Shown here: one piece after another, positions 3,385-25,917 of the stretch
Layout of the letters: each line of letters opens with the position of its first letter
Position numbering within the stretch: position 1 is the first letter of the stretch
Origin: Oscillospiraceae bacterium
GTDB taxonomy: Bacteria > Bacillota > Clostridia > Oscillospirales > Oscillospiraceae
DNA: 64,000 nt
NCBI GenBank assembly: GCA_045631645.1
Contig: JAZQVC010000038.1
Location: 1,856 to 65,855, forward strand
Direction of reading: 5' to 3'
Program-made: the position numbers and the translations under genes
Notes under the pieces: generated by a model
The model's database searches: none
What the model was told of the DNA's origin: nothing
The model's input: the letters and a program-made list of their open reading frames with translations, nothing else

Positions 3385-5172
3385 ATGCCGGATAAGGTTA
3401 TACTCGCAGGCAATCCCAATGTAGGGAAATCAACTATATTTAACGCACTGACCGGTCTTAGGCAACACACTGGCAACTGGACGGGCAAGACAGTGGGAAG
3501 CGCCTATGCCTATATTTCTTGCGGAAATAAAAGGATAATGATAATCGACACTCCCGGTACATATTCCCTTCTTGCCGATTCACCTGACGAAAAAGCTGCC
3601 GCAGAAACAATTATTAACACCGAATGTAATCATATAATATATATCTGCGACGCCTGTTGCCTTGAAAAAAGTTTATACCTTTTGCTGCAAATTATGGAAA
3701 AACGTGGCAATATCACCGTATGTCTGAACCTTATGGACGAAGCCGAAAGAAAAGGCGTCAAAGTTGACATCGATGCTCTCTCCCGTGAACTTTTACTTCC
3801 GGTCATACCCATGAGCGCCTCAAAAGGCTTAGGCCTCGATACGCTTCTAGCTACTGTTAACAAAGCGGGCTTCAGTGAAATTAAAGATTCCAAATCCGAC
3901 TTTGATATAATTGCGCTTAAAACAAGAGCTGCAGAAATTGCGAACAGATCCATCACATCATCAGATAAAGTAAAAATCAGCACTCTAGACAAACTGCTAT
4001 TCAGCAAGATTTTCGGTGTTCCGATTATGCTTGCAATGCTATTGGCAATTCTATGGATAAGCATCAGCGCCGCCAATGTCCCTTCTTCTCTTTTAAGCGC
4101 ATTATTTGACCATATAGGAACATTTTTAAGAAACTGCGCACAGACATTATCAATCCCAGAAATGCTGACAGGCGCGATAATTGACGGGATATACGGCACG
4201 GTGGCATGGGTTGTGTCTGTAATGTTGCCGCCTATGGCAATATTTTTCCCGCTCTTCACTTTACTTGAAGATTTCGGCCTTTTGCCGAGAATTTCCTTTA
4301 ATCTGGACCCTATTTTCAAATGCTGTGGCAGTTGCGGAAAGCAGGCTCTTACCATGTGTATGGGACTTGGCTGCAACGCTGTGGGTGTTACTTCCTGCGC
4401 AATTATTTCATCTCCTCGACAAAAACTTATAAGCATATTGACCAACAGCTTTATGCCCTGCAACGGAAGATTTCCTACTATCATTCTACTTGCGGCCATT
4501 TTATTTCCGGAAGGCGCTGATATAAGCGCACCAATAGCTGTAATGACAGTAATACTGCTGGGAGTCGCAGCTACACTCATAAGCACAAAATTACTCTCTC
4601 TTGTATATTGCAGGAACGAAACTATGTCCTTCACTTTAGAATTGCCGCCTTACCGAAAGCCGAAAATATGGGATACGCTGGTGCGTTCCTTTTATGATCG
4701 CACGCTGAAGGTTCTCTTTCGCGCAATCAAGGCCTCAGCCCCTGCAGGACTTATCATCTGGCTTTTAGCTAACATTAAAATCAATGACGCAAGCCTGATA
4801 TCCTATATATGCGGCTATTTGGAAGCGCCTGCTTCAGTTTTCGGATTAAACGGAATAATACTGTTTGCATTCATACTCGGTCTTCCAGCCAATGAAATTA
4901 TAATGCCAATAGTTCTTATGTGCTGCACATCAGGAAGCAGTCTTATGCTTATTCCCGATGCCCAGGAAATGGGAACTATCCTACAAAATAACGGTTGGAG
5001 CGGATGTACAATAATATGCGTTCTTATTTTCACTCTTTTTCACTGGCCCTGCGCTACAACGCTTATGACTATAAAAAAAGAATGCGGTAAAATGCGCTAT
5101 GTTGTACTCGCCGCACTTCTCCCGTGTCTCTGGGGATTTTTACTGTGCTATCTTGTAAATCTGATTATATAA
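3385..5172 (+). CDS. feoB: Ferrous iron transporter FeoB (G-domain plus permease)
   Basis: N-terminal GTPase G1 motif GNPNVGKST, DTPG, and a long polytopic C-terminus with conserved Cys-containing gate motifs. Confidence 0.95.
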   Translation: MPDKVILAGNPNVGKSTIFNALTGLRQHTGNWTGKTVGSAYAYISCGNKRIMIIDTPGTYSLLADSPDEKAAAETIINTECNHIIYICDACCLEKSLYLLLQIMEKRGNITVCLNLMDEAERKGVKVDIDALSRELLLPVIPMSASKGLGLDTLLATVNKAGFSEIKDSKSDFDIIALKTRAAEIANRSITSSDKVKISTLDKLLFSKIFGVPIMLAMLLAILWISISAANVPSSLLSALFDHIGTFLRNCAQTLSIPEMLTGAIIDGIYGTVAWVVSVMLPPMAIFFPLFTLLEDFGLLPRISFNLDPIFKCCGSCGKQALTMCMGLGCNAVGVTSCAIISSPRQKLISILTNSFMPCNGRFPTIILLAAILFPEGADISAPIAVMTVILLGVAATLISTKLLSLVYCRNETMSFTLELPPYRKPKIWDTLVRSFYDRTLKVLFRAIKASAPAGLIIWLLANIKINDASLISYICGYLEAPASVFGLNGIILFAFILGLPANEIIMPIVLMCCTSGSSLMLIPDAQEMGTILQNNGWSGCTIICVLIFTLFHWPCATTLMTIKKECGKMRYVVLAALLPCLWGFLLCYLVNLII

Positions 5173-10196: not shown

Positions 10197-10300
10197 CGTT
10201 TCTCACCTCGTATCAAGCTATTTTACTACCATTTATATATAATGTCAAAACCCTATTGCATAATTTATCGAATGTGGTATACTTGCATTAATAATACAGA

Positions 10301-10424
10301 TATCTTCAGGGCAGGGTGAAAATCCCGACCGGCGGTATAGTCCGCGAGCGCTTGCGCATGAATCGGTGTAACTCCGATACCGACAGTAATGACCATTGGT
10401 CAAAGTCTGGATGGAAGAAGATAA
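10301..10424 (+). promoter_or_regulatory. FMN riboswitch (RFN element)
   Basis: cttcagggcagggtgaaaatcccgaccggcggtatagtccgcgagcg ... ccgacagt ... agtctggatggaagaag matches the RFN core. P1 pairs tatcttc with gaagata. It sits upstream of a riboflavin ECF S-component gene. Confidence 0.9.
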
Positions 10425-10454
10425 TAGCGATTTTTTACCTTCGCTTAATCTTTG

Positions 10455-10497
10455 TGCATCTGCAGATATATCTGTATGATGCATTTTTATTTTTTGG
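10455..10497 (+). terminator. Riboswitch expression-platform terminator
   Basis: tgcatctgcagata/tatctgtatgatgca hairpin followed by tttttatttttt. Confidence 0.6.
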
Positions 10498-10508
10498 AGG
10501 TAGTTCCC

Positions 10509-11060
10509 GTGAATGTTAAGCACCGTACCCGCAAACTCACCGCAATGGCTATTATGATTGCGATATCCGTTGTGTTGGTTTATTTTATTCATATCCCCAT
10601 CTTCCCTCAGGTCGCTTTTCTTGAATATGACCCCGCAGACATCTCAATTCTCATCTGCGGCTTTGCCTTCGGACCCGTTGCTGGAATTTGCGTAACAATT
10701 ATAGCATCCCTTATTCAGGGGCTCACCGTCAGCGCCCACAGCGGTGTTTACGGAATACTCATGCACGTTATTGCAACAAGCGCCTTTGTTCTTGTTTCTT
10801 CGATCATATATCGCCGGCATAAGAGCAAAAAAGCAGCAGCCATTGCGCTTATTTGCGGTGTTGCTGCAATGGTTATCGTTATGGTTCCTGCCAATCTTTT
10901 TATCACTCCTTACTTTATGGGAGTTCCCAGAAGCCTTGTCGTCGATCTTCTTGGCTTTATCGTTGCATTTAACGCCATTAAAGCCGGAATTAACGGATTT
11001 CTAACCTTCCTGCTTTATAAAAGCGTATCCAAACTTTTCAAACATTTTGAAGTTAAATAA
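10509..11060 (+). CDS. ribU: ECF transporter S component, riboflavin-specific (RibU)
   Basis: GTG start 8 nt after GGAGG. About 6 TM and about 183 aa. Directly downstream of the FMN riboswitch. Confidence 0.85.
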   Translation: MNVKHRTRKLTAMAIMIAISVVLVYFIHIPIFPQVAFLEYDPADISILICGFAFGPVAGICVTIIASLIQGLTVSAHSGVYGILMHVIATSAFVLVSSIIYRRHKSKKAAAIALICGVAAMVIVMVPANLFITPYFMGVPRSLVVDLLGFIVAFNAIKAGINGFLTFLLYKSVSKLFKHFEVK

Positions 11061-11065
11061 TAAAA

Positions 11066-11097
11066 AATAACCGATGCAATTGCATCGGTTATTTTTT
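11066..11097. terminator. Bidirectional intrinsic terminator
   Basis: aaccgatgcaattgcatcggtt palindrome flanked by A- and T-runs, between convergent ribU and the ligase gene. Confidence 0.8.
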
Positions 11098-11100
11098 ATA

Positions 11101-13380
11101 TTAAAGCTTGCTTCTAATTATCTTGCCGCTGGTGGTCTTGGGAAGTTCAGTGCGGAAGACAATGATTCTGGGATACTTATAGGGAGCGGTACGCTTCTTA
11201 ACATACTCCTGAATCTCAGCAGCGAGCTCATCGCTACCCTCATTTCCCTTAGTCAGAACGATGCTGGCTTTGACAACCTGTCCACGTACGGGATCGGGTT
11301 CAGCGGAGACACCGCATTCAAGAACATAGGGAAGTTCCATAATAACGGACTCGATTTCGAAAGGTCCGATTCTGTAACCGGAGGACTTGATAAGGTCATC
11401 AGCGCGGCCGACATACCAGAGGTAGTCATCCTCATCGCGCCATGCAAGGTCACCGGTATGGTAGAATCCGTCATGCCAAACAGCAGAGGTTTCGGCTTCA
11501 TTTTCAAAATAACCCATGAAAAGTCCGCAGGGAGCGCCATCGCTGACCTTTATGCAGATTTCACCGGGTTCGCCATCGGCAGCCTCTTCGCCTTCAGCAG
11601 TAAGCAGGTGGACATCATACAGGGGGTTAGGTTTACCCATAGAGCCGATTTTAGGCGCCATACCTACATAGTTACCGATAACGCAGGTGGTTTCGGTCTG
11701 ACCAAAACCTTCCATGATGGAGAGTCCGGTATGCTCGCGGAAGCGGTTGAAAACTTCGGGGTTCATTGCCTCGCCGGCAGTGGATGCATGCTTAATAGTG
11801 CTGAGGTCATATTTGCTGAGATCTTCTTTAATGAAGAAGCGATACATGGTGGGAGGCGCACAGAAGGTGGTTATGCCGTACTTCTTGAACATCGGCATAA
11901 TGTCATCGGCATGGAAACGGTCGAAGTCATAGACGAATACAGCTGCTTCGCAGAGCCACTGACCGAAGAGCTTGCCCCACATAGCCTTTGCCCAGCCGGT
12001 ATCGGAAATTGTGAGATGAAGTCCATCGGGATCAACACAGTGCCAATATCTTGCAGTAACGAAATGTCCGAGAGGGTATTTGCAGTTATGTGCTGCAAGC
12101 TTGGGATAGCCGGTAGAGCCGGAGGTAAATATCATCATCATAGGATCATCGCCGCAAATACTGTCCGCAGTGCGGGCGAAGCGGCTTGAATACATCTCGA
12201 ACTCATCGTCGAAGCAGTGCCATCCTTCGCACTTACCATTGACAACGATCATGTTTTTGATATTACCGTATTTTTCAATAGCGCTGCGGGATTCGATGGT
12301 GGATGTTCCGTCAGCAGTGCAGATAATATGCTTAACGTGAGCAACATCAAAGCGGTAGAGATAATCCTTCTCGAGAAGCTGGTCAACGGCCGGAATAGCA
12401 ACTGCGCCAAGTTTTTCAAGACCAATAAGTATGGGCCAGAACTGCCAGTTGCGGCGGAGAACAAGCATTACAGCATCGCCTTTTTCAATTCCCAGAGAGC
12501 GGAAATAGTTAGCAGCTCTGTTGCTCATCTTTTTCATTTCGCCAAATGTGAAACGATGCTCGCTCTTATCAGCGCCAATATGCACCATTGCAAGCTTGTC
12601 AGGCTGCTTTTCTGCTATTGCGTCAACAACATCGAAAGCGAAATTGAAACGATCGGTGTTTTTGAAAGAAATGCTCTTGAGAACACCGCTGCCGTCTTCA
12701 ACAGGCTCGATGAAGTTTTCCCAAATGCGCTTTTTGCCTGCTTCGCGGGTTGCGGTAATTGCAGGAACTGCGGCGCGCTTGGGCTGAACTTCCTCATCGG
12801 GAGTGAGAACAATAGCATAAAACTCGCAGTCGGTGCCATTGGTTGCAATGAGACCGTGAGGAGTTGTGGAGTCATAGTAAACGGTATCGCCGGGGCCAAG
12901 GATCTCGATATGATCACCAATCTGAACCTTCAGATAACCGCTTATAACGATATCGCACTCCTGACCTTCATGAGTGGTCAGTTCAATAGGCATCAGCTGA
13001 GCTTCAGGGGAAAACTTGCTGTAAACATAAAGAGGCTCTGCAATTCTGTTGCGGAATCTATGAGCAAGGTTATAGTAGGTCATTCCGTGGGCCTGCTCAA
13101 CGCGCTGTCCTTCCCCTCTTCTTGTAAGGGTATAGCTGCTGAGTCGGGGCGCAGTGCCTTCAATAAGCTCTGTAACGTCGACGCCAAGAGCCTGGGCGCA
13201 CATATAAAGGAATGCGAAGTCCAGATCCTGCTCGCCGGCCTCATAGGAAAGATACTCATCAAGAGATATGCCAATCTTCTTGGCCATATAATCTTCACTG
13301 TAACCAAGTATTGAGCGCAGTTCCTGAATACGACTGGCGATTTCCAGAATTTTGAACTGCAAAGCATTTTTTGTCTGCAT
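11101..13380 (-). CDS. Fusion protein: XRE-type HTH + cupin + AMP-forming (medium-chain-type) acyl-CoA ligase, paralog 1
   Basis: 759 aa. N-terminal HTH (LRSILGYSEDYMAKKIGISLDEYLSYEAGEQD), then a cupin (HEGQECDIVISGYLKVQIGD...PGDTVYYDSTTPHG). Ligase motifs follow: FTSGSTGYPK, GQTET, YHTGD, SSGYRIGPFEIES, SGKIIRSKL. Confidence 0.9.
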   Translation of the reverse strand: MQTKNALQFKILEIASRIQELRSILGYSEDYMAKKIGISLDEYLSYEAGEQDLDFAFLYMCAQALGVDVTELIEGTAPRLSSYTLTRRGEGQRVEQAHGMTYYNLAHRFRNRIAEPLYVYSKFSPEAQLMPIELTTHEGQECDIVISGYLKVQIGDHIEILGPGDTVYYDSTTPHGLIATNGTDCEFYAIVLTPDEEVQPKRAAVPAITATREAGKKRIWENFIEPVEDGSGVLKSISFKNTDRFNFAFDVVDAIAEKQPDKLAMVHIGADKSEHRFTFGEMKKMSNRAANYFRSLGIEKGDAVMLVLRRNWQFWPILIGLEKLGAVAIPAVDQLLEKDYLYRFDVAHVKHIICTADGTSTIESRSAIEKYGNIKNMIVVNGKCEGWHCFDDEFEMYSSRFARTADSICGDDPMMMIFTSGSTGYPKLAAHNCKYPLGHFVTARYWHCVDPDGLHLTISDTGWAKAMWGKLFGQWLCEAAVFVYDFDRFHADDIMPMFKKYGITTFCAPPTMYRFFIKEDLSKYDLSTIKHASTAGEAMNPEVFNRFREHTGLSIMEGFGQTETTCVIGNYVGMAPKIGSMGKPNPLYDVHLLTAEGEEAADGEPGEICIKVSDGAPCGLFMGYFENEAETSAVWHDGFYHTGDLAWRDEDDYLWYVGRADDLIKSSGYRIGPFEIESVIMELPYVLECGVSAEPDPVRGQVVKASIVLTKGNEGSDELAAEIQEYVKKRTAPYKYPRIIVFRTELPKTTSGKIIRSKL

Positions 13381-13414
13381 AAGGCAAACCTCCCTGAAAA
13401 TTTTTGGGATAAAT

Positions 13415-13664
13415 AAAAAAGTCCCCGGAAATCCGGGGACGGAATATACCGCGGTACCACCCTGGTTGCGGATTATAAATCCGCCACTTTTAGAGTCTTA
13501 TAAAACTCATATTGCTCTTACGCGGCTTCACGGGAGGCTCTACTAACCTTTCGGTTTTCTGCTCTCCGACTCCGGAGCGACAAGTTTCGGAAACAAACGC
13601 AATCTGCTTTCACCGACCGCAGACTCTCTGATGCGTCATAAATCCAACTCTCTCCATCATTGCC
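13415..13664 (-). promoter_or_regulatory. T-box leader 1 (tRNA-sensing transcription attenuator)
   Basis: Minus-strand RNA shows GGC-AAUGAU-GGAG (K-turn), AGAGU, the CAGAGAG AG-bulge, the GGUGAAAGC distal loop, the conserved T-box AACCAGGGUGGUACCGCGG (13449-13467) and the terminator GUCCCCGGAUUUCCGGGGAC + U6. Confidence 0.85.
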
Positions 13665-13698
13665 TTTAGTGTATTAAATTGATAAATAACTTTAAAAA

Positions 13699-13726
13699 GT
13701 ATAAACGATAGCCCAAATTTCGTCAA
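13699..13726 (-). promoter_or_regulatory. Putative sigma-A promoter for T-box leader 1
   Basis: Minus strand TTGACG-17 nt-TATACT, immediately upstream of Stem I. Confidence 0.45.
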
Positions 13727-13742
13727 GATCTTTTTGTCAAAA

Positions 13743-14429
13743 TCAAAGGCTTTCTATAAGCGCAGGTATTTCATCAAGACTCTTGACTACAAACTCGGGA
13801 ACGATGTCCTCTCTGCCCTGCTTACCACTGGGATTAAACCAACAGGTATGGATTCCAACGTTGAGACCGCCCTTGATATCACTTGTGAGACTATCGCCGA
13901 TTATTATCATCTCACTCTTCTCATAAGGAGGCATCTGGGCGAAGCATTTATCGAAAAACTCTACACGGGGTTTATCAAATCCAACACGCTGAGAAATAAA
14001 TATTTCCTCAAAGAAATGACCTATGTCTGCGCTTTTAAGTCTGGGCACCTGAACGGATTCATTTCCGTTAGTGACCAAATAAAGCTTATATTTTCCATAG
14101 AGGGACTCAAGAAATTCAACAGCACCGGGAATGAAATAGTGTCCTATACCCAGATTGGTATTATAAAGCTGCTGAGTGGCGGCGCTGTCTCCCTCTACTC
14201 CAAGTGCCTCAAAAAGTCTGTCAAAACGATATACAAGGACCTGCTCTCTTGTAAGCTCTCCGCGTTCAAGCATCTCCCAGTGGCGCTTATTTATTTCGCT
14301 ATAAAGACTAATGGTCTCTTCATTAGGCTCAATTCCCACTTCGCGAAAGGTTTTCCGGATTGCAACATGTTCTGCCTTGGTGAAATCAAGCAAGGTATCA
14401 TCGCTATCAAGCAAAACCGCTTTAATCAT
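13743..14429 (-). CDS. HAD-superfamily hydrolase, YjjG-like nucleotidase subfamily
   Basis: DSDDT motif I (LLDSDDTLLDF), TNG motif II and GDS..SDI motif IV. 228 aa. Confidence 0.8.
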   Translation of the reverse strand: MIKAVLLDSDDTLLDFTKAEHVAIRKTFREVGIEPNEETISLYSEINKRHWEMLERGELTREQVLVYRFDRLFEALGVEGDSAATQQLYNTNLGIGHYFIPGAVEFLESLYGKYKLYLVTNGNESVQVPRLKSADIGHFFEEIFISQRVGFDKPRVEFFDKCFAQMPPYEKSEMIIIGDSLTSDIKGGLNVGIHTCWFNPSGKQGREDIVPEFVVKSLDEIPALIESL

Positions 14430-14484
14430 ATATTTTCTCCTTGTGTAAATGGGGCGAACAAAAGGTTCGCCCCATAAATTTTGA

Positions 14485-16791
14485 TTAGAGTTTGTTTCTT
14501 ATGATCTTACCGCTGATGGTCTTGGGAAGTTCATCTCTGAACTCAACAATTCTGGGATACTTATAAGGAGCAGTGCGCTTTTTGACGTATTCCTGAATCT
14601 CTTTGGCAAGCTCATCACTTGGCTGAGTACCCTTTACAAGGGTGATGCAGGCCTTTACAACCTGTCCGCGAATTTCATCGGGAGCTGCGCAAACGCCGCA
14701 TTCAAGAACATAGGGAAGTTCCATGATAACGGACTCGATCTCGAAAGGTCCGATGCGATAGCCGGAGGATTTGATAACATCATCAGCGCGTCCGACATAA
14801 TAGAAATATCCGTCCTCATCGCGCCAAGCGAGGTCACCGGTGTGGTAATAATCATCGTGCCAGCTATTATGTGTTGCATCAGGAGCATTGAAATAGCCCT
14901 TGAAGAGACCGCATGGAGCGCCATCGCCGGTGTAAATTACAATTTCGCCGGTTTCACCGTCGCCCACAAGTTCGCCATCGAGGTTCATAAGCTTAACATC
15001 ATACATGGGATTGGCCTTACCCATAGAACCAAGTTTGGGTCTTGTTCCAACAAAGTTACCGATAGTGAGGGTGGTTTCGGTCTGTCCAAATGCTTCCATA
15101 ATAGTAAGACCAGTTGCTTCCTTGAAACGGTTGAAAACTTCGGGGTTAAGAGCCTCGCCGGCGGTAGTGGCATGCTTGATGGAGCTAAGATCGTACTTGC
15201 TGAGATCTTCCTTGATGAAGAAACGGTACATAGTGGGAGGTGCGCAGAAGCTGGTTATGCCGTATTTAGCAAACATAGGCATAATGTCATCTGCTGCGAA
15301 TCTATCAAAGTCATATACAAAGGTTGCTCCACCGCACATCCACTGTCCATAGAGTTTGCCCCAAAGAGCCTTACCCCAACCGGTTTCAGAAATTGTGAAA
15401 TGAACGCCGTTGGGATCGATATTATGCCAGAAACGGGCAGTTACATAGTGTCCGATGGGATATCTGTAGCTATGGTCAACAGCCTTGGGATAGCCGGAAG
15501 TTCCGGAAGAGAAAAGCATCAGCATAGTGTCATCGCCACAGGGACTATCCTCGGTGCGGCTGAAACGGCTGGAATACATATCATATTCATCGTCAAAGCT
15601 GTGCCATCCTTCGCGAGTGCCGCCTGCAATAACCTTAAGACGGACACTGGGGCAGCGTTCCATTGCCTTCTCTGCTTCAACAGAGCTTGTTCCGAAGGCG
15701 CTGCAAACAACTGCAGAGACATTTGCGGCATTGAAGCGATATTCGAAGTCTTTTTCAACAAGCTGGTCGGTTGCAGGTATTGCAATAGCGCCAAGCTTAT
15801 GCAGACCAACAATGATGGGCCAGAATTCCCAGTTACGGCGGAGAACAAGCATTACGCGCTCGCCTTTCTTTATACCAAGAGCACGGAAATAGTTGGCTGC
15901 TCGTGCGCTCATCTTCTTCATCTGGAGGAAGCTGAAGCGGCGCTCATTCTTCTCGCGATCGATATGTATCATTGCAAGGCGATCAGGTTCGCGCTCTGCA
16001 ATGGCATCAACAACATCAAAGGCAAAGTTGAAGCTATCAGTGTTGGAAAACTTGATGCCAACGGGAGTTCCTTTTGCGTTCACCTCAGCAGTGATGAACT
16101 TATCCATGTAGTTGGGGAATTCCTTGACCTGAGGCAGTTCAATTGCTTCGGCCGCCTTAACGGCAGAAGCGTTAACCATCTTTCCATGGCTCCATATAAG
16201 TTCTTCATCTTCATCAGGAAGAACGATGGCGCAGAAAACGCAGTCAGAACCTCCAACAGCAATCATGCCGTGAGGAGTTGAGGAGTTATAGAAGATGCTG
16301 TCGCCTGGAGCAAGAACTTCGGTGTGTTCTCCTATGCGAACCTTGAGGGAGCCTTCAATGACAATGTCGAACTCCTGACCTGCATGAGTATCCTGCTCGA
16401 TAGGCTGAGACTGCTGTGCCTCGGAATACTCATAACGAACCCAATAAGGGTCGGCCTTGCGGTTTTTGAACATGGGAGCAAGACTCTGAATAGTAATTCC
16501 CTGCTCTCTTGCAGTGAGCTGTCCGTCTCCGCGTCGGGTAACGGTATAGCCGCTGAGGCGAGGAGCACTGCCGCGAAGCAGCTCCATCATCTCAACATCA
16601 AAAAGCTCTGCACATTTATGAATATAACTAAAGGGCAGGTCTGCCTTTGCATTTTCGTAAAGCTCACATTCAGCGAGGGAGAAGCCGGTAAGCTCTGCCA
16701 TCTGCTCAATAGAGTAGCCGCAGTCAAGTCGCAGGGACTTAATTCGCAGCGCAACCTCCATCATAAGCATTCCACTGTTTGTAGTAGCCAT
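14485..16791 (-). CDS. Fusion protein: XRE-type HTH + cupin + AMP-forming (medium-chain-type) acyl-CoA ligase, paralog 2
   Basis: Start reassigned to MATTNSG (ATG at 16791, SD GGAGG 8 nt upstream), because the 872-aa tracked ORF runs through the T-box leader. Same three-domain layout and ligase motifs as paralog 1: FSSGTSGYPK, GQTET, YHTGD, SSGYRIGPFEIES, SGKIIRNKL. Confidence 0.9.
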   Translation of the reverse strand: MATTNSGMLMMEVALRIKSLRLDCGYSIEQMAELTGFSLAECELYENAKADLPFSYIHKCAELFDVEMMELLRGSAPRLSGYTVTRRGDGQLTAREQGITIQSLAPMFKNRKADPYWVRYEYSEAQQSQPIEQDTHAGQEFDIVIEGSLKVRIGEHTEVLAPGDSIFYNSSTPHGMIAVGGSDCVFCAIVLPDEDEELIWSHGKMVNASAVKAAEAIELPQVKEFPNYMDKFITAEVNAKGTPVGIKFSNTDSFNFAFDVVDAIAEREPDRLAMIHIDREKNERRFSFLQMKKMSARAANYFRALGIKKGERVMLVLRRNWEFWPIIVGLHKLGAIAIPATDQLVEKDFEYRFNAANVSAVVCSAFGTSSVEAEKAMERCPSVRLKVIAGGTREGWHSFDDEYDMYSSRFSRTEDSPCGDDTMLMLFSSGTSGYPKAVDHSYRYPIGHYVTARFWHNIDPNGVHFTISETGWGKALWGKLYGQWMCGGATFVYDFDRFAADDIMPMFAKYGITSFCAPPTMYRFFIKEDLSKYDLSSIKHATTAGEALNPEVFNRFKEATGLTIMEAFGQTETTLTIGNFVGTRPKLGSMGKANPMYDVKLMNLDGELVGDGETGEIVIYTGDGAPCGLFKGYFNAPDATHNSWHDDYYHTGDLAWRDEDGYFYYVGRADDVIKSSGYRIGPFEIESVIMELPYVLECGVCAAPDEIRGQVVKACITLVKGTQPSDELAKEIQEYVKKRTAPYKYPRIVEFRDELPKTISGKIIRNKL

Positions 16792-16828
16792 AAAATCGCC
16801 TCCAGAAAATAATGTGAGATGCGGAGAT

Positions 16829-17101
16829 AAAATAAAAACCCGCCTCAAAGATACAAGACCTTGAGACGAGCTAAACATTAACCCGCGGTACCACTCAAAT
16901 TGCGATTTGAAAAATCGCCACTCATCGGACTCTGTCAAGCCCTTGGCATTAACGCAGCCTTCACGTGGACTCTTACCCGATTTTACCCGCTCGGAATCCC
17001 GACTCGGAAGTGATGGACATATTGGCGTCTTCGTCATCCGCTTGCAGCAAAACGCGGACTCTCTGTGTCGGAAGGACATCCATGTCGTCTTCGTCATTGT
17101 C
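16829..17101 (-). promoter_or_regulatory. T-box leader 2 (tRNA-sensing transcription attenuator)
   Basis: Minus-strand RNA shows GAC-AAUGAC-GAAG (K-turn), the CAGAGAG AG-bulge, the conserved T-box AAUUUGAGUGGUACCGCGGG (16882-16901) and a terminator hairpin CGUCUCAAGG/CUUUGAGGCG + GGUUUUUAUUUU. Confidence 0.85.
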
Positions 17102-17111
17102 ATTTGAAGAT

Positions 17112-17140
17112 ATTAAAGCACTTACATTATTTTTTGTCAA
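17112..17140 (-). promoter_or_regulatory. Putative sigma-A promoter for T-box leader 2
   Basis: Minus strand TTGACA-17 nt-TTTAAT just upstream of Stem I. Confidence 0.45.
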
Positions 17141-17224
17141 TCACTTTAGTTATTAAATATATACAAAAAGCGTATTTTATTTATCAAATTAAATTGATGA
17201 AGAGTAAAAAATTATCAAACTTTC

Positions 17225-17253
17225 TTGACGGAGCAAATTAAGGGATATATAAT
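17225..17253 (+). promoter_or_regulatory. Putative sigma-A promoter of the P-loop/oxidoreductase operon
   Basis: TTGACG-17 nt-TATAAT, 46 nt upstream of the 17299 start. Confidence 0.5.
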
Positions 17254-17298: not shown

Positions 17299-18003
17299 AT
17301 GACGAATTTTCTCTCGCTTATGGCACATGGGCCAAGAAAAATTGCCGTTACAGGGCATTTCGGCTGCGGTAAAACCGAGTTTGCCGTATCCCTTGCAATG
17401 GCATTGGCAAAATTAAATATTCCAAATCTGGCTCTTGCGGATCTTGATCTCGAAAACCCCTATTTCCGCTCAAGAGAGAGAATGACCGAGCTTGAGAACG
17501 CCGGTATAAAGGTTTATTCCGACCCTTTCAAAGGTAAAAACGGCAGCGAGCTTCAAACACTGGATCCTGCCATAAGAGCGCCTCTCGAAAATCCCGATTG
17601 CAGAGTTATTCTCGATGCAGGCGGCGACTTTACAGGCGCAATGATACTTAATCAGTATTCAAAATATCTTAAGGAAGATACTCAGCTTCTTTATGTACTC
17701 AACAAAAACCGCCCCGGAACAAGCGATCTGGAAGGTGCGCTCTTTCAGCTGAAAAGCATTGAAGAAACCACCTCTCTTTCCGTAAGCGGCATAATATCCA
17801 ATTCTCATCTTATCCGATATACAAGCGAGGAAGATATTATTGAAGGCTGGGAATTTGCTCAGGAAGTGAGCAAAGCAACCAGCATACCCGTTCTTTGCGC
17901 ATGCTGCATGGAACAACTTGCTCCTTTAGTCAGCGGAAAAGGATTTGACGTGTTCCCCATCGGAATGTACATGAGGGACAGCTATCTTGACAAACAAGTT
18001 TGA
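17299..18003 (+). CDS. SIMIBI-class P-loop NTPase of unknown function, first gene of the 2-oxoacid oxidoreductase operon
   Basis: Walker A GHFGCGKT, Walker B-like VILDAGGD, and a possible degenerate NKxD (LNKNR). 234 aa. Confidence 0.6.
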   Translation: MTNFLSLMAHGPRKIAVTGHFGCGKTEFAVSLAMALAKLNIPNLALADLDLENPYFRSRERMTELENAGIKVYSDPFKGKNGSELQTLDPAIRAPLENPDCRVILDAGGDFTGAMILNQYSKYLKEDTQLLYVLNKNRPGTSDLEGALFQLKSIEETTSLSVSGIISNSHLIRYTSEEDIIEGWEFAQEVSKATSIPVLCACCMEQLAPLVSGKGFDVFPIGMYMRDSYLDKQV

Positions 18004-18024
18004 TTCACATATTTGGAGGTAATT

Positions 18025-18264
18025 ATGTTTAAGAGATTCAAAGTCCTATTTAACAGAGACAAGTGCAAGGGCTGCGAGCTTTGCGTAAACTTCTGCCCTA
18101 TGAAGATAATAGAAATGGACAAAAGCAGCGTCAACAGCAAGGGCTATCATCCCGCTTCCATTGACGAGGACAATATGGAGTGCTGCGTAGGCTGCTCCAG
18201 CTGCGCCCTGATGTGCCCTGACTGCTGCATCTCCATTTATCAGCTTGAGGAGGGTGAAGAATGA
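18025..18264 (+). CDS. 2-oxoacid:ferredoxin oxidoreductase delta subunit (2x[4Fe-4S] ferredoxin)
   Basis: CKGCELCVNFCP and CVGCSSCALMCP cluster motifs. ATG 7 nt after GGAGG. Confidence 0.85.
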   Translation: MFKRFKVLFNRDKCKGCELCVNFCPMKIIEMDKSSVNSKGYHPASIDEDNMECCVGCSSCALMCPDCCISIYQLEEGEE

Positions 18265-19337
18265 AAAAGATACTTATGAAAGGTAATGAGGCATTTGCTG
18301 AGGCTGCCATTCGCGCAGGCTGCAAGTGCTACTGCGGCTATCCCATCACCCCTCAGAATGAAATACCCGAATACATGAGCCACGAGCTTCCCAAGGCAGG
18401 CGGCGCATTTGTGCAGGCCGAAAGCGAGCTTGCAGCTGTCAATATGGCCTACGGCGCTGCAGCAAGCGGCGGAAGAGTTTTCATCTCCTCTTCCTCCCCC
18501 GGAATCAGCCTTATGCAGGAAGGTCTCGGCTTCATCTGTTCTGCCGAAGTTCCCCTTGTTGTACTCAACGTCTCCCGCGGCGGCCCCGGCGTTGGCGGCA
18601 TTCAGCCCGGTCAGGCAGACTATAATCAGGTTACCCGCGGCGGCTATAACGGCGACTGCAAGATCCCCGTATTTGCACCCGCAGGAATTCAGGAATGCGT
18701 TGACCTTATTTATGAATGCTTCGACCTCGCTGAAGAATACCGCAATCCTATGATGATTCTTGCCGACGGTATGATGGGACAGATGATGGAGCCCATTGTT
18801 CTTCCCGAAGCTAAGGGTATTACCCCTGTTGATAAAATCTCCGAGGAAAAGCCCTGGGCCATCACCGGCACAGACTCTCACCCCGGCAGAAATGTAATCT
18901 ATTCTCTGCGTATGGAGCCCGATGTTCTTGAAAAGCATGTTTATCATCTCTTCGAAAAGTACGAAAAAGCAGAGAAAGAGCTTGTGCGTTACAAATCTCA
19001 GGGTCTTGAAGATGCTGAAATTGTTTTTGTTGCATTCGGAACTATGAGCCGTCTTTGCGCAGAAGCAATTGAGCTTCTTGGCGAAAAAGGCATTAAGGCA
19101 GGTATGATCCGTCCTATCAGCCTTTGGCCCTTCCCCGACAAGGCTTTTGACGAAATCGGCGATAAGTGCAAAATTGTTATTTCCACTGAGCTCAGCATGG
19201 GTCAGATGCTTGCGGATGTTAAGTCCGCCGTGGCAGGTCGTTGGAAATGCGGTCTTATAAACCGCACCGGTGGCATTGTCCCCTCCTCTCTTGAGATCGT
19301 CGAGAGAGCAATCAAACTTTGGGAGGAAGCCAAATGA
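18261..19337 (+). CDS. 2-oxoacid:ferredoxin oxidoreductase alpha subunit
   Basis: 358 aa: MKGNEAFAEAAIRAGC..YPITPQNEI...QAESELAAVNMAYGAAASG, the typical Kor/Vor/Por alpha N-terminus. Overlaps delta by 4 nt. Confidence 0.9.
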   Translation: MKKILMKGNEAFAEAAIRAGCKCYCGYPITPQNEIPEYMSHELPKAGGAFVQAESELAAVNMAYGAAASGGRVFISSSSPGISLMQEGLGFICSAEVPLVVLNVSRGGPGVGGIQPGQADYNQVTRGGYNGDCKIPVFAPAGIQECVDLIYECFDLAEEYRNPMMILADGMMGQMMEPIVLPEAKGITPVDKISEEKPWAITGTDSHPGRNVIYSLRMEPDVLEKHVYHLFEKYEKAEKELVRYKSQGLEDAEIVFVAFGTMSRLCAEAIELLGEKGIKAGMIRPISLWPFPDKAFDEIGDKCKIVISTELSMGQMLADVKSAVAGRWKCGLINRTGGIVPSSLEIVERAIKLWEEAK

Positions 19338-20080
19338 AAACCATATTTGAACCCACAAAAGGCATCGTCCCTGTTGACAACAGCTACTGCCCCGGTTGCT
19401 CCCACGGCATTGCCCATCGTCTCATAATGGAATGCCTTGAAGAACGCGGCCGCCTTGGCAAAACCATCGGCGTTGTCCCCATCGGCTGCTCCATCAACGC
19501 TCATCACTTTATGAACATCGACATGTGCGAATCCACCCATGGACGCGCCCCTGCAATCGCCAGCGGTATTCGCCGCGTGCATCCCGACAAGACCGTTTTC
19601 ACCTATCAGGGTGACGGCGACCTTGCATCCATTGGCGCAGGCGAAATTGTACACGCAGCCCATCGCGGCGAGAAGTTTACTACTTTCTTTATCAATAACG
19701 CCATTTACGGTATGACTGGCGGCCAGATGGCTCCCACCACCCTTATCGGACAGAGAGCAACCACCGCTGTTGACGGTCGCACCAAGGAACAGGCAGGTCT
19801 GCCCCTCAGAGTAAGCGAAATGCTTGCAACCATTGACGGCGCTGTTTTTGTTGAGCGCGTTATGCTTAATAACCCCGCTAATATCCGCAAGGCAAAAAAG
19901 GCCATTCACAAGGCTTTGGATGTTCAGGACGCAGGTCTTGGTTTCAGCTTTGTTGAGTTTCTCTCCGTTTGTCCCACCAACTGGGGCTACAATCCTTATG
20001 ACGCCATAAAGTGGATGGAGAAGAACATGGCCGAATATTATCCCATTGGAAATTTCAAGTGCCCGGAGGAAATGAAGTAA
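19334..20080 (+). CDS. 2-oxoacid:ferredoxin oxidoreductase beta subunit (TPP-binding)
   Basis: CPGCSHG, GDGD and NNAIYGMTGGQ motifs. ATGA overlap with alpha. Confidence 0.9.
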   Translation: MKTIFEPTKGIVPVDNSYCPGCSHGIAHRLIMECLEERGRLGKTIGVVPIGCSINAHHFMNIDMCESTHGRAPAIASGIRRVHPDKTVFTYQGDGDLASIGAGEIVHAAHRGEKFTTFFINNAIYGMTGGQMAPTTLIGQRATTAVDGRTKEQAGLPLRVSEMLATIDGAVFVERVMLNNPANIRKAKKAIHKALDVQDAGLGFSFVEFLSVCPTNWGYNPYDAIKWMEKNMAEYYPIGNFKCPEEMK

Positions 20081-20081
20081 T

Positions 20082-20609
20082 ATGAAACGCAAACTCTTTT
20101 TCGCCGGAAGCGGCGGTCAGGGCACTCTCGCACTGGGCCAGATGATTGCAAAAGCCGCTATGGATGAGGGAAAAGAAGTCACCTGGCTTCCCTCCTATGG
20201 ACCTGAAATGCGCGGCGGCACCGCAAACTGCACTGTTGTTGTCTCCGACAAGGCTATAAGCTGCCCACTCATTAACGATGCCGATGTACTCGTCGCCATG
20301 AATCTCCCTTCCCTGCGCAAATTTGAGAACATGGTAAATCCCGGCGGCGTTATCCTTATGAACACTTCTCTTATTCCTGAAAAATGCCTTCGCGATGATG
20401 TCAAGGTTGTAGAAATTCCCTGCAATGACCTCGCAAAGGAACTGGGAAATGAAAAATGCGCTAACATCATTATGCTTGGCGCCATTTTGAAGGAAACCGA
20501 AATTGTTTCCCTCGAGACCATTCATGAGCAGCTTGAGCATATGTTCTCCGGACGTAAAGCCGCTTTCCTGCCCCTTAACAAGAAGGCACTTGACATCTAC
20601 ACCAAATGA
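20082..20609 (+). CDS. 2-oxoacid:ferredoxin oxidoreductase gamma subunit
   Basis: 175 aa: AGSGGQGTLALGQMIA...YGPEMRGGTANCTV, the gamma-subunit signature. Confidence 0.9.
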   Translation: MKRKLFFAGSGGQGTLALGQMIAKAAMDEGKEVTWLPSYGPEMRGGTANCTVVVSDKAISCPLINDADVLVAMNLPSLRKFENMVNPGGVILMNTSLIPEKCLRDDVKVVEIPCNDLAKELGNEKCANIIMLGAILKETEIVSLETIHEQLEHMFSGRKAAFLPLNKKALDIYTK

Positions 20610-22625: not shown

Positions 22626-23645
22626 TTACTCTGATAATTCTCCGCGAAGATTCTTCTCCATAAGACTCTTGATGCGCTGGGAAGAGCAGCGTTTTGCAAA
22701 GAGATAGCGAAGCTTAGTAACTGCAGCTTCAACAGTCATATCTCCACCGCTTACAGCACCGGCTCTTTTCAATGCAGAGCTTGTTTCATAAGTTCCAAGC
22801 TGAACCTTGCCGCGGAGGCACTGGGTGCACACAACAATGATTGTGCCGTTATCTGCAGCCTTGCTTATAAGGGGCAAAAGTTCCGCATCATACTGGGGAA
22901 TATTGCCCACACCGAATGCTTCGATAACAAGAGCTTTGAGGTTCTCCGTCATTATATTCTCAAACATTCTGAACTGTATGCCGGGGAATATTTTTAAAAC
23001 TGCAATAGGAAGATCCTCTGCAAAATCCACAACATTAAGATCATTTTCTTTCTCACGGATAAGAGCATCAATATAGCGAATATCTATCGCAGCAGTGGCG
23101 AGAGGCGGAAAATTGGGAGAAGAGAACGCTTCCATTTCATCTGCAGAAACTTTTGTGGAACGATTGCCGCGAAGAAGTTTTTTGCCGAAATATAGGCAAA
23201 CTTCGGGCACTCTGCCTTCACCTGCAATAATAATAGAGCCGATAAGATTATCCCGTGCGTCGGAGCGGGCATGGCCGATGGGAATCTGCGCACCTGTCAA
23301 AACAACAGTTTTACCCAGTCCTTCAAGCATAAAGCTAAGAGCGGAGGCTGTATATGCCATTGTATCCGTTCCATGAAGAATGACAAAGCCGTCATACTTA
23401 TCATAATTATCTTTTATGGTGTGAGCCATAGCGCTCCAATCGCTTATGGAGATATTGCTGGAATCACAAATATGCTCAAACTCAATTAGCTCCCACTGGG
23501 GCATTCCGGAGTGGAAAAGCTCACTCATTCTTCCAAGCACTCGATGAAGATAACCGCTTTTGGTTGCATATCCGTCCTCGGTTTCCACCATACCGATAGT
23601 GCCGCCGGTATATATAATGAGAACTTTTTTATTGGATAACATCAA
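22626..23645 (-). CDS. ansA: Type I L-asparaginase
   Basis: YTGGTIGM N-terminal Thr motif and the HGTDTM second motif. 339 aa. Confidence 0.9.
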   Translation of the reverse strand: MMLSNKKVLIIYTGGTIGMVETEDGYATKSGYLHRVLGRMSELFHSGMPQWELIEFEHICDSSNISISDWSAMAHTIKDNYDKYDGFVILHGTDTMAYTASALSFMLEGLGKTVVLTGAQIPIGHARSDARDNLIGSIIIAGEGRVPEVCLYFGKKLLRGNRSTKVSADEMEAFSSPNFPPLATAAIDIRYIDALIREKENDLNVVDFAEDLPIAVLKIFPGIQFRMFENIMTENLKALVIEAFGVGNIPQYDAELLPLISKAADNGTIIVVCTQCLRGKVQLGTYETSSALKRAGAVSGGDMTVEAAVTKLRYLFAKRCSSQRIKSLMEKNLRGELSE

Positions 23646-24202
23646 TATTGTCCTCCAGTAGGTAATTTAATGTTCTTTCGTATTTTTTTAACAAGTGCAG
23701 GTGTAACAAAAGCAAACAAAACAGCCAGAATAATGCTTATAACAAACTTAGGTATAAGCAAACCGAACACCAACGCATAGGAATAATATTTATAAATTAT
23801 ACTGTCCACATAAAGAGCAAGAGTATTCAGTGCGGTTGTAAGTATACCTGCAATAATGGTGAAAACCATAAGAGCACCAACGGACGGTGAATAATTCTTA
23901 TGTTTGGAATAAAATCCTATAATCAGACCACGAACTATAACGGGCAACATCCAAAGCAAGGTTGTTGGAGTAATGCCATAGCCAGAAAAGAAAAGCTGAT
24001 ATATGCCGCTCCCCAAAAAGCCTATAAGAGAACCATGGAAAGGACCAAACATTACAGCTCCAACAATTATTGGAAATGCATCAAGGGTAAACTTGAAATT
24101 AGCCACCCTGAAGGCAATGGAATTTAAGACAACATACATGGCAACAAGAACAGCGTCGGTGGCCATCATGCGTATATTGAGTCTTCCCTTTCTTCCACTC
24201 AT
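23642..24202 (-). CDS. folT: ECF transporter S component, folate family (FolT)
   Basis: 186 aa and about 6 TM. Directly downstream of a THF riboswitch. 4-nt overlap with ansA. Confidence 0.8.
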   Translation of the reverse strand: MSGRKGRLNIRMMATDAVLVAMYVVLNSIAFRVANFKFTLDAFPIIVGAVMFGPFHGSLIGFLGSGIYQLFFSGYGITPTTLLWMLPVIVRGLIIGFYSKHKNYSPSVGALMVFTIIAGILTTALNTLALYVDSIIYKYYSYALVFGLLIPKFVISIILAVLFAFVTPALVKKIRKNIKLPTGGQY

Positions 24203-24258: not shown

Positions 24259-24360
24259 GTGGCAGCGGATGCGGGAAAAGCATCGCACACCTATAAAGGT
24301 GCTTCGTCCTGAGACAACTCCCATCCTCAGGCACTTGACGCGCAGTTCCCTACTCTGTCC
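24259..24360 (-). promoter_or_regulatory. THF (tetrahydrofolate) riboswitch
   Basis: Minus-strand RNA ACAGAGUAGGGAACUGCGCGUCAAGUGCCUGAGGAUGGGAGUUGUCUCAGGACGAAGCACC...GCAUCCGCUGCC closely parallels the folT-motif THF aptamer as I recall it (AGAGUAG..CGCGUUAAGUG..GAAUGGGAUG..ACGAAGC..GCAUCCGCU). Confidence 0.85.
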
Positions 24361-24395: not shown

Positions 24396-25256
24396 TTACT
24401 TCTTTGTCACCATATTTTCTGCACTTTCAAGAGTATGACGGAGCAAAACAGCAGTTGTAACAGCGCCGACTCCGCCGGGCACAGGCGTTACATAGGATGC
24501 GATTTCTTCAGCAGCAGAAAAATTAACGTCTCCGCACATTTTTCCATCGTCATCAAAGTTGATACCGACATCAATAACGCACTGTCCTTCGCGGAAATAA
24601 TCACCATTGAGAGCCTTTGCTTTTCCAAGGGCTGCAACAACAATATCAGCCTTCCTGGAAATTTCATCGGCGCCAAGGGTGTGGCTATGGCAGACAGTTA
24701 CAGTTGCATTTTCAGCCATTAGAAGCATACTGACAGGCTTTCCGATAACCAGACTGCGTCCAAACACGACAGCTTGGCGGGATGCAATGGGGATATTGTA
24801 ATATTTGAGAATTTCTATTACGGCGCGAGCAGTGCAAGGGGCAAAGCCGCTGCCTTTTCCTGAATACACGAAAGCCGCCGAGCCTGATGTTACACCGTCA
24901 ACATCCTTCGCAGGCAATATAGTTTCACGTACAAGAGTTTCATCAATATGGGAAGGAAGAGGCATGAAGACAAGAATTCCATGAACATTATTATCATTAT
25001 TCAGCTCAGTGATAACACTGATTATTTCGTCCTGACTTACGCTTTCGCTCAGGACAATTTGTTTTGCCTCCACATTTAATGTGCTACAGCGCTTGAGAAT
25101 ACCTCTTTCATATGCAATGTCATCTCCTCGTTCACCAACTCTTACAATGGCAAGACAAGGGCTTATTCCTTTATCTCTGAGAGAAAGGCAAATTGCTTTT
25201 GAACCTTCATTCAAAGCGGATGCAACCGCCGCTCCCTTCAAAATTTCAGCGCTCAT
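24396..25256 (-). CDS. folD: Bifunctional methylene-THF dehydrogenase / methenyl-THF cyclohydrolase
   Basis: 286 aa: GRSLVIGKPVSMLL, TPVPGGVGAVT; canonical FolD. Confidence 0.95.
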   Translation of the reverse strand: MSAEILKGAAVASALNEGSKAICLSLRDKGISPCLAIVRVGERGDDIAYERGILKRCSTLNVEAKQIVLSESVSQDEIISVITELNNDNNVHGILVFMPLPSHIDETLVRETILPAKDVDGVTSGSAAFVYSGKGSGFAPCTARAVIEILKYYNIPIASRQAVVFGRSLVIGKPVSMLLMAENATVTVCHSHTLGADEISRKADIVVAALGKAKALNGDYFREGQCVIDVGINFDDDGKMCGDVNFSAAEEIASYVTPVPGGVGAVTTAVLLRHTLESAENMVTKK

Positions 25257-25870
25257 TTAAGTCTCTCCCAAACTTTTTCATAAACATTTTCAGCGATTTT
25301 CCAATGCTCGGACATAAGAGAATCCACTTCATCGTTAAGCTTCTCTGCATATGCTCGGTCTGTCATTAGTTTTGTATTCACTCTGACATTCATAGCCGCT
25401 CCATAAAGAGACGCCCAAAGGATGATAACGCCCGTACCAACATCAGAAACAGCCAAAACACTTCCAATTTCCTCAAGACGACGGTGAATCTTAATCCCCT
25501 TGCAGGAAAGACGAACTATTTCCATAGGCGGCTCAGCAGCCAAACGAAGGCATCGCTCCATCTCCTCAGCTCTGGTAGGATCATCCTTGGGTATTGAGTA
25601 GGCTTTTGACAAGGGCTCAAAGGCTTTTGCATCCTCATCAATAAGGCATTGACATTTGCTCACGAGCTCCTCAAGTTCATGTAGCAGCTTATTAAGCTCA
25701 TCTTCATACTGAGAATACTTTTTCTTGCCTATCGTAAGATTCACAACCATTGAACCGAGAGCGCAGCCCAAAGATGCTGCAAGAGCGCTTGCTCCGCCGC
25801 CACCGGGCACGGCAGAACGGGATGCCAAAAGAGTATTAAAATTATCTATCTGCATTGCAGAAAAATCCAT
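25253..25870 (-). CDS. fchA: Cyclodeaminase/cyclohydrolase family protein (FTCD_C-like, FchA-type)
   Basis: VPGGGGASALAASLG motif. Start set at the internal Met because the longer ORF runs into the upp terminator hairpin. Confidence 0.75.
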   Translation of the reverse strand: MDFSAMQIDNFNTLLASRSAVPGGGGASALAASLGCALGSMVVNLTIGKKKYSQYEDELNKLLHELEELVSKCQCLIDEDAKAFEPLSKAYSIPKDDPTRAEEMERCLRLAAEPPMEIVRLSCKGIKIHRRLEEIGSVLAVSDVGTGVIILWASLYGAAMNVRVNTKLMTDRAYAEKLNDEVDSLMSEHWKIAENVYEKVWERLK

Positions 25871-25885
25871 AATAGAACCGTCCTT

Positions 25886-25917
25886 CAATAAAACGGGAGG
25901 CAATAATTCCTCCCGTT
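25886..25917 (-). terminator. Intrinsic terminator after upp
   Basis: Minus strand aaacgggagg-aattattg-cctcccgtttt. Confidence 0.65.

Follow-up and report, generated by a model that had tools for sequence, protein, structure and literature searches.

The 64,000-nucleotide stretch of Oscillospiraceae DNA analysed here (the window) carries on its reverse strand two paralogous genes, ligA and ligB, each coding for a fusion of a helix-turn-helix (HTH) domain, a cupin and an acyl-CoA ligase, and each preceded by a T-box leader of its own. The pair of HTH-cupin-ligase paralogs (759 and about 768 residues) had been described in an earlier note on this DNA, and both Pfam domains and coordinates confirm it. 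The features at the centre of this analysis are the following, with valine and isoleucine abbreviated as Val and Ile.

11101..13380, reverse strand: ligA, HTH-cupin-acyl-CoA ligase of the Val type, predicted isobutyrate-CoA ligase; 759 aa, with GWAKAMWG at residues 462-469
13421..13440, reverse strand: terminator hairpin of leader A, followed by UUUUUU
13432..13669, reverse strand: T-box leader A (Val); RF00230 101.5 bits, E 3e-21, full-length match
13698..13726, reverse strand: promoter-like site of leader A and ligA, TTGACG-17-TATACT
14485..16791, reverse strand: ligB, HTH-cupin-acyl-CoA ligase of the Ile type, predicted 2-methylbutyrate-CoA ligase; 768 aa, with GWGKALWG
16837..16872, reverse strand: terminator hairpin of leader B, followed by a U-run
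16859..17106, reverse strand: T-box leader B (Ile); RF00230 84.4 bits, E 1e-18, model positions 1-219 matched
17112..17140, reverse strand: ligB promoter, TTGACA-17-TTTAAT with an upstream TG (TGcTTTAAT), kept in orthologs

Both proteins contain the Pfam domains HTH_3/HTH_19, Cupin_2, AMP-binding and AMP-binding_C, with HTH_3 scoring 26.7 bits in ligA and 23.3 bits in ligB (cutoff 23) and Cupin_2 scoring 42.4 and 43.7 bits, respectively (cutoff 27.2). They share 61% protein identity. The earlier estimate of about 80% DNA identity over long ligase stretches was overstated, since the 1570 nt compared in the ligase region are 72% identical, and 81-86% is reached in single 150-nt windows only. The label of fatty-acid ligases did not hold either, and we read both enzymes as ligases of short branched acids. 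The start of ligB was placed at the ATG at 16791, which has the ribosome-binding site GGAGG 7 nt upstream. A mechanical search returns instead an open reading frame (ORF) of 872 aa (14485-17103, reverse strand), as the ligB frame stays open through the Ile leader, and a public gene call in a related locus (L066, 3047-5635, 862 aa) is likewise extended into its T-box leader. Extension of these ligases by about 100 residues into the riboswitch, by ORF finders and in public calls, is an annotation artefact.

The T-box hallmarks claimed earlier for each leader were recovered in both. The K-turn region (UGA...GGAG/GAAG), the AGAGA bulge and the distal loop are present, as are the conserved sequences GGGUGGUACCGCG in leader A and GAGUGGUACCGCG in leader B. 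Both also have UGGUACCGCG and an antiterminator with a UGGUACC bulge, whose UGGU lies at 13456-13459 in leader A. The arms of each terminator overlap the 3' arm of the corresponding antiterminator, and the terminator hairpins, each with its U-run, are 10-13 kcal/mol more stable than the antiterminators (-23.3 vs -9.8 kcal/mol in leader A, -22.2 vs -12.5 kcal/mol in leader B). The Rfam covariance model RF00230, with its gathering score of 93 bits, was our criterion for a T-box. Leader A passes it, and leader B scores below it despite its E value. The distal loop of leader B is deviant (GCUGCAA in place of GGUGAAA), which probably costs it score. Because orthologous B leaders score 86-96 bits, 17 of 51 predicted base pairs show compensatory double changes in an alignment of 11 orthologous B-type leaders, and every sequence hallmark is in place, we regard leader B as a real T-box. 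The only tRNA genes within the window are those for tRNA-Gly and tRNA-Arg.

Leaders of ligase homologs were gathered from 147 loci, made up of 63 genome loci, all from rumen or gut metagenome-assembled genomes (MAGs), 4 contigs found by exact protein look-up, and 80 metagenome loci, human gut samples among them. In the Rfam alignment, the specifier of leader A is GUC (Val, 13579-13581), followed by G and the helix CUCC, while that of leader B is AUC (Ile, 17012-17014), followed by A and the helix CUUC. Among A-type leaders GUC, a purine and CUCC are invariant and the preceding triplet is variable; among B-type leaders AUC, A or C and CUUC are invariant, with AUC in 11/11 aligned orthologs. These two specifiers are conserved across about 85 orthologous leaders (those of L067 and L117 were also read from Rfam alignments), and Val-type leaders of more distant relatives have GUA or GUG, which are synonymous with GUC. 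It follows from this switch that the identity of the amino acid, and not the codon sequence, is kept. No specifier other than Val or Ile was found before this ligase family among the 147 loci. The pairing of T-box and ligase first seen in the window recurs in its relatives.

A leucine (Leu) or isovalerate ligase of this family was also looked for and ruled out in the 147 loci, where the Leu T-boxes of the same clusters precede leuA-like genes only. Four of these loci, L086 (280-3582), L104 (3704-380, reverse strand), L110 (4330-1003, reverse strand) and L113 (3006-6303), have a Leu-specifier T-box (CUG/CUC), a leuA-like gene and then a gene in which a xylose-isomerase-like TIM barrel is fused to a FadD-type AMP-binding domain, adjoining an Ile-type ligase.

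The ligase domain matches Macs of M. acetivorans (PDB 3ETC) with 603 bits over residues 242-757 and 52-53% identity. All ligase catalytic motifs are conserved in ligA and ligB, and the equivalent of Macs Trp259 is conserved in 39/39 sequences. Macs prefers 2-methylbutyrate, and Trp259 is critical in its pocket (PMC10455477). The best NCBIfam model for both proteins is S. aureus MbcS (NF047394), at 406 bits for ligA and 421 bits for ligB against an equivalog cutoff of 850 bits, which suggests enzymes related to MbcS in activity that are not MbcS orthologs. MbcS is selective for 2-methylbutyrate and isobutyrate and poor on isovalerate, and its documented role is the priming of branched-chain fatty acid (BCFA) synthesis (PMC10026030). 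That the best-scoring named family serves BCFA priming raises a first alternative, in which the acyl-CoAs made here are mainly FabH primers for BCFAs, as with MbcS in S. aureus. The T-boxes would make sense in this case too, because a shortage of Val or Ile is also a shortage of the primers derived from them.

When 19 ligases with a Val leader were compared with 13 that have an Ile leader, 11 positions proved to be fixed within each group but to differ between them. Three of them lie in the ligase (N381G, A464G and M467L), and positions 464 and 467 fall inside the motif GW[A/G]KA[M/L]WG. The S. enterica Acs residue aligned with position 464 is Val310 (numbering verified), which belongs to the set of four residues that line the acetate pocket. 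A Val leader goes with Ala464 (GW-A-K) in 42 of 43 pairs, and an Ile leader with Gly464 (GW-G-K) in 43 of 44, tallies whose members are not phylogenetically independent. L066 and L067, whose paralogs cluster together outside the A and B clades of the window, also follow the rule, as does a Lachnospiraceae ligase pair that has no T-box (L065). The obvious reading of the Ala/Gly switch is that the pocket is smaller where the C4 acid is the substrate and larger where it is the C5 acid, and we infer that ligA activates isobutyrate and ligB 2-methylbutyrate. The earlier suggestion that two copies imply two pairs of amino acid and acid is supported, with Val (GUC) and Ile (AUC) specifiers and a pocket position that co-varies with them.

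The same co-variation bears on a second alternative, in which the proteins are mainly transcription factors of the XRE HTH-cupin type, the ligase part is a sensor or a secondary function, and the T-boxes set the level of the regulator. Its attraction is that the scores of the HTH and cupin domains lie above or near their Pfam thresholds and that 8 of the 11 clade-fixed differences lie inside the HTH-cupin module. A pocket residue that follows the specifier argues, however, for catalytic selection, and the enzyme part has kept all its catalytic motifs along with 52-53% identity to an active enzyme.

Upstream of ligB and divergent from it lies an operon that the earlier note did not mention:

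17225..17253, forward strand: promoter-like site, TTGACG-17-TATAAT, ahead of the divergent oxidoreductase operon
17299..18003, forward strand: 234-aa P-loop (SIMIBI-class) NTPase, first gene of the operon
18013..20609, forward strand: four-subunit 2-oxoacid:ferredoxin oxidoreductase of the 2-ketoisovalerate (VOR) type
18013-18264, forward strand: VOR subunit delta
18261-19337, forward strand: VOR subunit alpha
19319-20080, forward strand: VOR subunit beta
20082-20609, forward strand: VOR subunit gamma

The VOR subunits contain the Pfam domains POR_N, PFOR_II, TPP_enzyme_C and POR together with 2x[4Fe-4S] domains, and the alpha subunit scores 469.6 bits against the NCBIfam VorB subfamily (NF005507, cutoff 399). 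The 234-aa protein had no Pfam or NCBIfam match. It carries a Walker A motif (GHFGCGKT), DAGGD and an invariant Cys202, and its roughly 1650 homologs are named only 'ATP-binding protein'. Its AlphaFold2 (AF2) model has a predicted local distance difference test (pLDDT) score of 85, and Foldseek matches it to SRP/FtsY, ATPase-type HypB and Mrp-like proteins with TM-scores of about 0.55. In two phyla its gene is invariably found ahead of the VOR genes. The protein may be a factor for VOR maturation or energy coupling.

Other Oscillospiraceae, a Lachnospiraceae MAG and rumen Coriobacteriia without any T-box likewise have the cluster of P-loop and VOR genes beside the ligase. In many metagenomic relatives everything is arranged as a single transcription unit, T-box(Ile)-ligase, T-box(Val)-ligase-P-loop-VOR(delta, alpha, beta, gamma)-IlvE. 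The T-box-ligase-P-loop-VOR-IlvE operon is found in L066, L067, L069, L071, L072 and L075, and also in L084, L088, L090, L091 and L116; VOR itself is under T-box control in L066 and L067. Such operons are often flanked by genes of a liv-type ATP-binding cassette (ABC) transporter and by leuA behind a Leu T-box. Ligase, VOR and aminotransferase together cover all three steps from a branched acid to an amino acid by reductive carboxylation, and classical physiology already describes this route from 2-methylbutyrate to isoleucine for anaerobes of the rumen (Robinson & Allison 1969, cited in PMC2812497).

This gene context speaks against a role chiefly in lipid priming, given that the ligase repeatedly shares an operon with VOR and IlvE and has leuA and liv transporter genes as neighbours, while no fab genes were noticed in the window or in the inspected loci. 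One leader per amino acid also suits amino-acid supply. We therefore regard priming as the main function as unlikely, though the two uses of the acyl-CoAs could coexist. A third alternative arises from the reversibility of VOR and from the fact that branched acids are typical end products of rumen fermentation: VOR would oxidise branched 2-oxoacids, and the ligase, running in reverse, would release the acid and make ATP. Induction by uncharged cognate tRNA, and thus by scarcity of the amino acid, is the opposite of what degradation needs, and the genes are located together with the biosynthetic leuA, so that a catabolic or energy role is hardly credible.

We consider it quite probable that the locus is a T-box-gated salvage module which makes valine and isoleucine from the branched short-chain acids of the rumen. 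Each ligase gene would have a separate sigma-70-type promoter, and its transcript would begin with a T-box leader of about 250 nt. When Val or Ile runs short, more of the cognate tRNA would be uncharged, and the NCCA end of that tRNA would pair with the UGGU bulge and stabilise the antiterminator, allowing the polymerase to read into the ligase gene; with charged tRNA, the far more stable terminator would form. LigA would then produce isobutyryl-CoA and ligB 2-methylbutyryl-CoA, with conversion of ATP to AMP, and VOR would reductively carboxylate these products, using reduced ferredoxin and CO2, to 2-oxoisovalerate and 2-oxo-3-methylvalerate, which IlvE would transaminate to Val and Ile. Part of the 2-oxoisovalerate could also feed LeuA for leucine synthesis. 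Gating the ligase step makes sense because it consumes ATP and is essentially irreversible, whereas VOR is reversible. The earlier note had proposed that lack of a specific amino acid induces the activation of its precursor acid, and this idea gained support from all comparative tests, namely the specifiers, the co-variation of the pocket, the Macs and MbcS relatives, the adjacent VOR and the co-transcription of IlvE in relatives. What that note lacked, the oxidoreductase operon and firm names for the amino acids, is supplied here by VOR and by the Val (GUC) and Ile (AUC) specifiers.

Several observations weigh against this interpretation. Substrates, flux direction and tRNA dependence of the module are all inferred from sequence; for the substrates, the basis is relatives and one pocket position, and neither ligase reaches the MbcS equivalog cutoff. 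The specifier/pocket rule has two exceptions, an L081 ligase with Gly behind a Val leader and an L135 ligase with Ala behind an Ile leader, and leader B formally stays under the gathering score. In this window VOR has no T-box, as no riboswitch follows the promoter of its operon, and the 64 kb contain no ilvE; among 30 further ORFs of the window no other genes of branched-chain amino acid metabolism were found. The acyl-CoA product is common to both fates and could equally prime BCFA synthesis. Finally, some close relatives do without the leader. It is absent altogether in L013, L015, L016 and L018, and only a remnant is left in L011 (about 190-260), in L012 (about 4910-4980), and upstream of the ligase in L014 and L017. 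The relic consists of the 3' antiterminator/terminator part (CGTCCCCGGAA...TTCCGGGGAC) behind a normal promoter. No T-box was found at the Rfam gathering threshold in L011-L018, in L029 or in the Coriobacteriia homolog loci, which have remnants or plain promoters. The T-box has thus been lost repeatedly within one clade, and because close relatives have lost the leader or keep only its remnant, T-box control is not obligatory for the pathway.

The HTH-cupin module may provide a further layer of control. Rumen Coriobacteriia have the HTH-cupin as a separate gene of 198-200 aa directly upstream of a ligase gene of 604-612 aa, again with no T-box:

L032, 5965-6567: Coriobacteriia HTH-cupin gene
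L032, 6667-8481: Coriobacteriia ligase gene
L045, 5971-6567: Coriobacteriia HTH-cupin gene
L045, 6648-8486: Coriobacteriia ligase gene

Because the two parts are adjacent genes in these species, we read the Clostridial protein as a fusion of a stand-alone XRE-cupin regulator with the neighbouring enzyme. The full-length AF2 model places the HTH at residues 6-74, the cupin at 92-192 and the ligase at 219-759, with disordered linkers between them; its predicted TM-score (pTM) is 0.63 and its inter-domain contacts are not reliable. Searched against PDB sequences, the N-terminal module gave marginal matches only, to the 434 repressor and to cupins (E > 0.03). The concentration of Val/Ile differences in this module hints at a clade-specific ligand. 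Neither an inverted-repeat search nor alignment found a conserved palindromic operator in the ligB-vor intergenic regions or upstream of leader A. A ATCAATTTAAT-like string does occur both in the ligB-vor intergenic region (17145-17192), where it is part of an inverted repeat that is not perfect, ATCAA-N6-TTGAT, and immediately ahead of leader A (13676-13690); being conserved within the window's own lineage only, it makes a weak candidate for an operator bound by the HTH module.

The independent HTH-cupin gene of the Coriobacteriia could be taken in favour of proteins that are regulators first. With no conserved palindromic operator in the promoter regions, and with the catalytic evidence given above, we hold that alternative to be very improbable. 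A regulatory role beside the enzymatic one is nevertheless plausible, and the HTH-cupin is probably a second, ligand-sensing layer of control derived from a once separate regulator. In a more elaborate and distinctly speculative scheme, which we put forward tentatively, the module would have a gate with two keys. The fused HTH-cupin would turn each ligase into a 'trigger enzyme' that senses its own branched acid or Val/Ile and controls transcription initiation of the ligase, the divergent oxidoreductase operon or both, and the T-box would check demand during elongation; the SIMIBI P-loop helper, through maturation or redox/energy coupling, would let VOR run uphill, and the specifier would label the specificity of the ligase, as written in the Ala/Gly code.

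Two features remain to be placed between and beside the ligase genes:

11060..11099, reverse strand: terminator-like hairpin 3' of ligA, common to the convergent ribU
13743..14429, reverse strand: YjjG-type nucleotidase of the haloacid dehalogenase (HAD) family; TIGR02254, 216 bits vs cutoff 160

A HAD hydrolase gene had been noted earlier as the separator of the paralogs, and it is indeed there, with leader A in the same interval. As a conserved component of the system it was ruled out, since it is confined to L001-L006, the closest relatives of the window, and the spacing of the tandem ligases is about 700 nt shorter in L007, L008, L020 and L024, which do not have it. It is a lineage-specific insert, probably read through from ligB. 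Because the hairpin upstream of it (14449-14475) has a weak U-run and the gene has no promoter of its own, its location alone may bring it, by chance, under the control of the Ile T-box.

On the other side of ligA, an FMN (flavin mononucleotide) riboswitch (98.7 bits, 10298-10426, forward strand) precedes a gene for the riboflavin S component of an energy-coupling factor (ECF) transporter (10452-11060, forward strand), which is convergent with ligA and has the hairpin at 11060-11099 in common with it. Beyond the VOR genes, a tetrahydrofolate (THF) riboswitch (24261-24359, reverse strand, 74.6 bits) lies upstream of a folate-family ECF S-component gene (23642-24202, reverse strand), which overlaps by 4 nt with the start of a type I asparaginase gene (22626-23645, reverse strand, 403 bits). 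Asparaginase is an unusual gene to find behind a folate riboswitch. The folD gene and a gene for a cyclodeaminase (24396-25903) are found just upstream of the THF riboswitch.

That rumen fibre degraders require isobutyrate and 2-methylbutyrate was recognised in the 1960s, and 'isoacids' are fed to cattle. We found no paper that names genes, or their regulation, for the conversion of isoacids to amino acids in rumen Clostridia, and none that links T-boxes with acyl-CoA synthetases or VOR. A 2020 rumen paper described the acid-to-amino-acid direction as unproven. Two surveys of the T-box regulon contain no reference to CoA ligases or to ferredoxin oxidoreductases, which agrees with the earlier view that acyl-CoA ligases are outside the classical T-box regulon. 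The T-box mechanism itself is ordinary, and the novelty lies in what these T-boxes control, which extends the regulon to an enzyme of carboxylic-acid salvage. The locus offers candidate genes for every step, that is, two acid-specific ligases, VOR with its accessory NTPase and, in relatives, IlvE, and the specifier of each T-box serves as a built-in functional label for the amino acid that the ligase would supply. The old question of the isoacid requirement can thereby be tested gene by gene, and the same genes provide markers for isoacid use in metagenomes and metatranscriptomes of the rumen and human gut. The Ala/Gly hypothesis could, in addition, be used in the engineering of short branched acyl-CoA synthetases.

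Among known systems, Macs (3ETC) is the closest solved structure to the ligases of the window and has the Trp259 equivalent in common with them. It is not joined to an HTH-cupin module or controlled by a T-box, however, and it has GWGK, whereas the enzymes of the window form a specificity pair, GWAK and GWGK. S. aureus MbcS acts on isobutyrate and 2-methylbutyrate, the very two acids predicted for ligA and ligB, but as a single enzyme for both and in fatty-acid priming, with no regulator fusion, T-box or VOR partner. The delta-alpha-beta-gamma set of the window is that of known VORs, with an alpha subunit above the subfamily cutoff; it differs in the SIMIBI P-loop protein that precedes it and in the carboxylating direction proposed for it. 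Enzymes fused to DNA-binding domains are known as 'trigger enzymes', BirA being an example. BirA, like ligA and ligB, is an adenylate-forming enzyme joined to a helix-turn-helix, which suggests that transcription may be coupled to the level of substrate or product, although BirA has no sequence relationship to the proteins of the window and the HTH-cupin part of the latter is a separate gene in Coriobacteriia. In architecture, leaders A and B are like the canonical transcriptional T-boxes of Firmicutes (RF00230; for example the B. subtilis tyrS and ilv-leu leaders), with which they have in common the Stem I K-turn, the specifier loop with codon and purine, the AG bulge, the distal loop, Stem III, the UGGN antiterminator bulge and a competing terminator, and their mechanism is presumably the same. 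The difference lies in the target, since canonical T-boxes control genes for aminoacyl-tRNA synthetases, de novo biosynthesis and transporters, whereas those described here precede acyl-CoA ligases for what would be a reductive-carboxylation salvage route.

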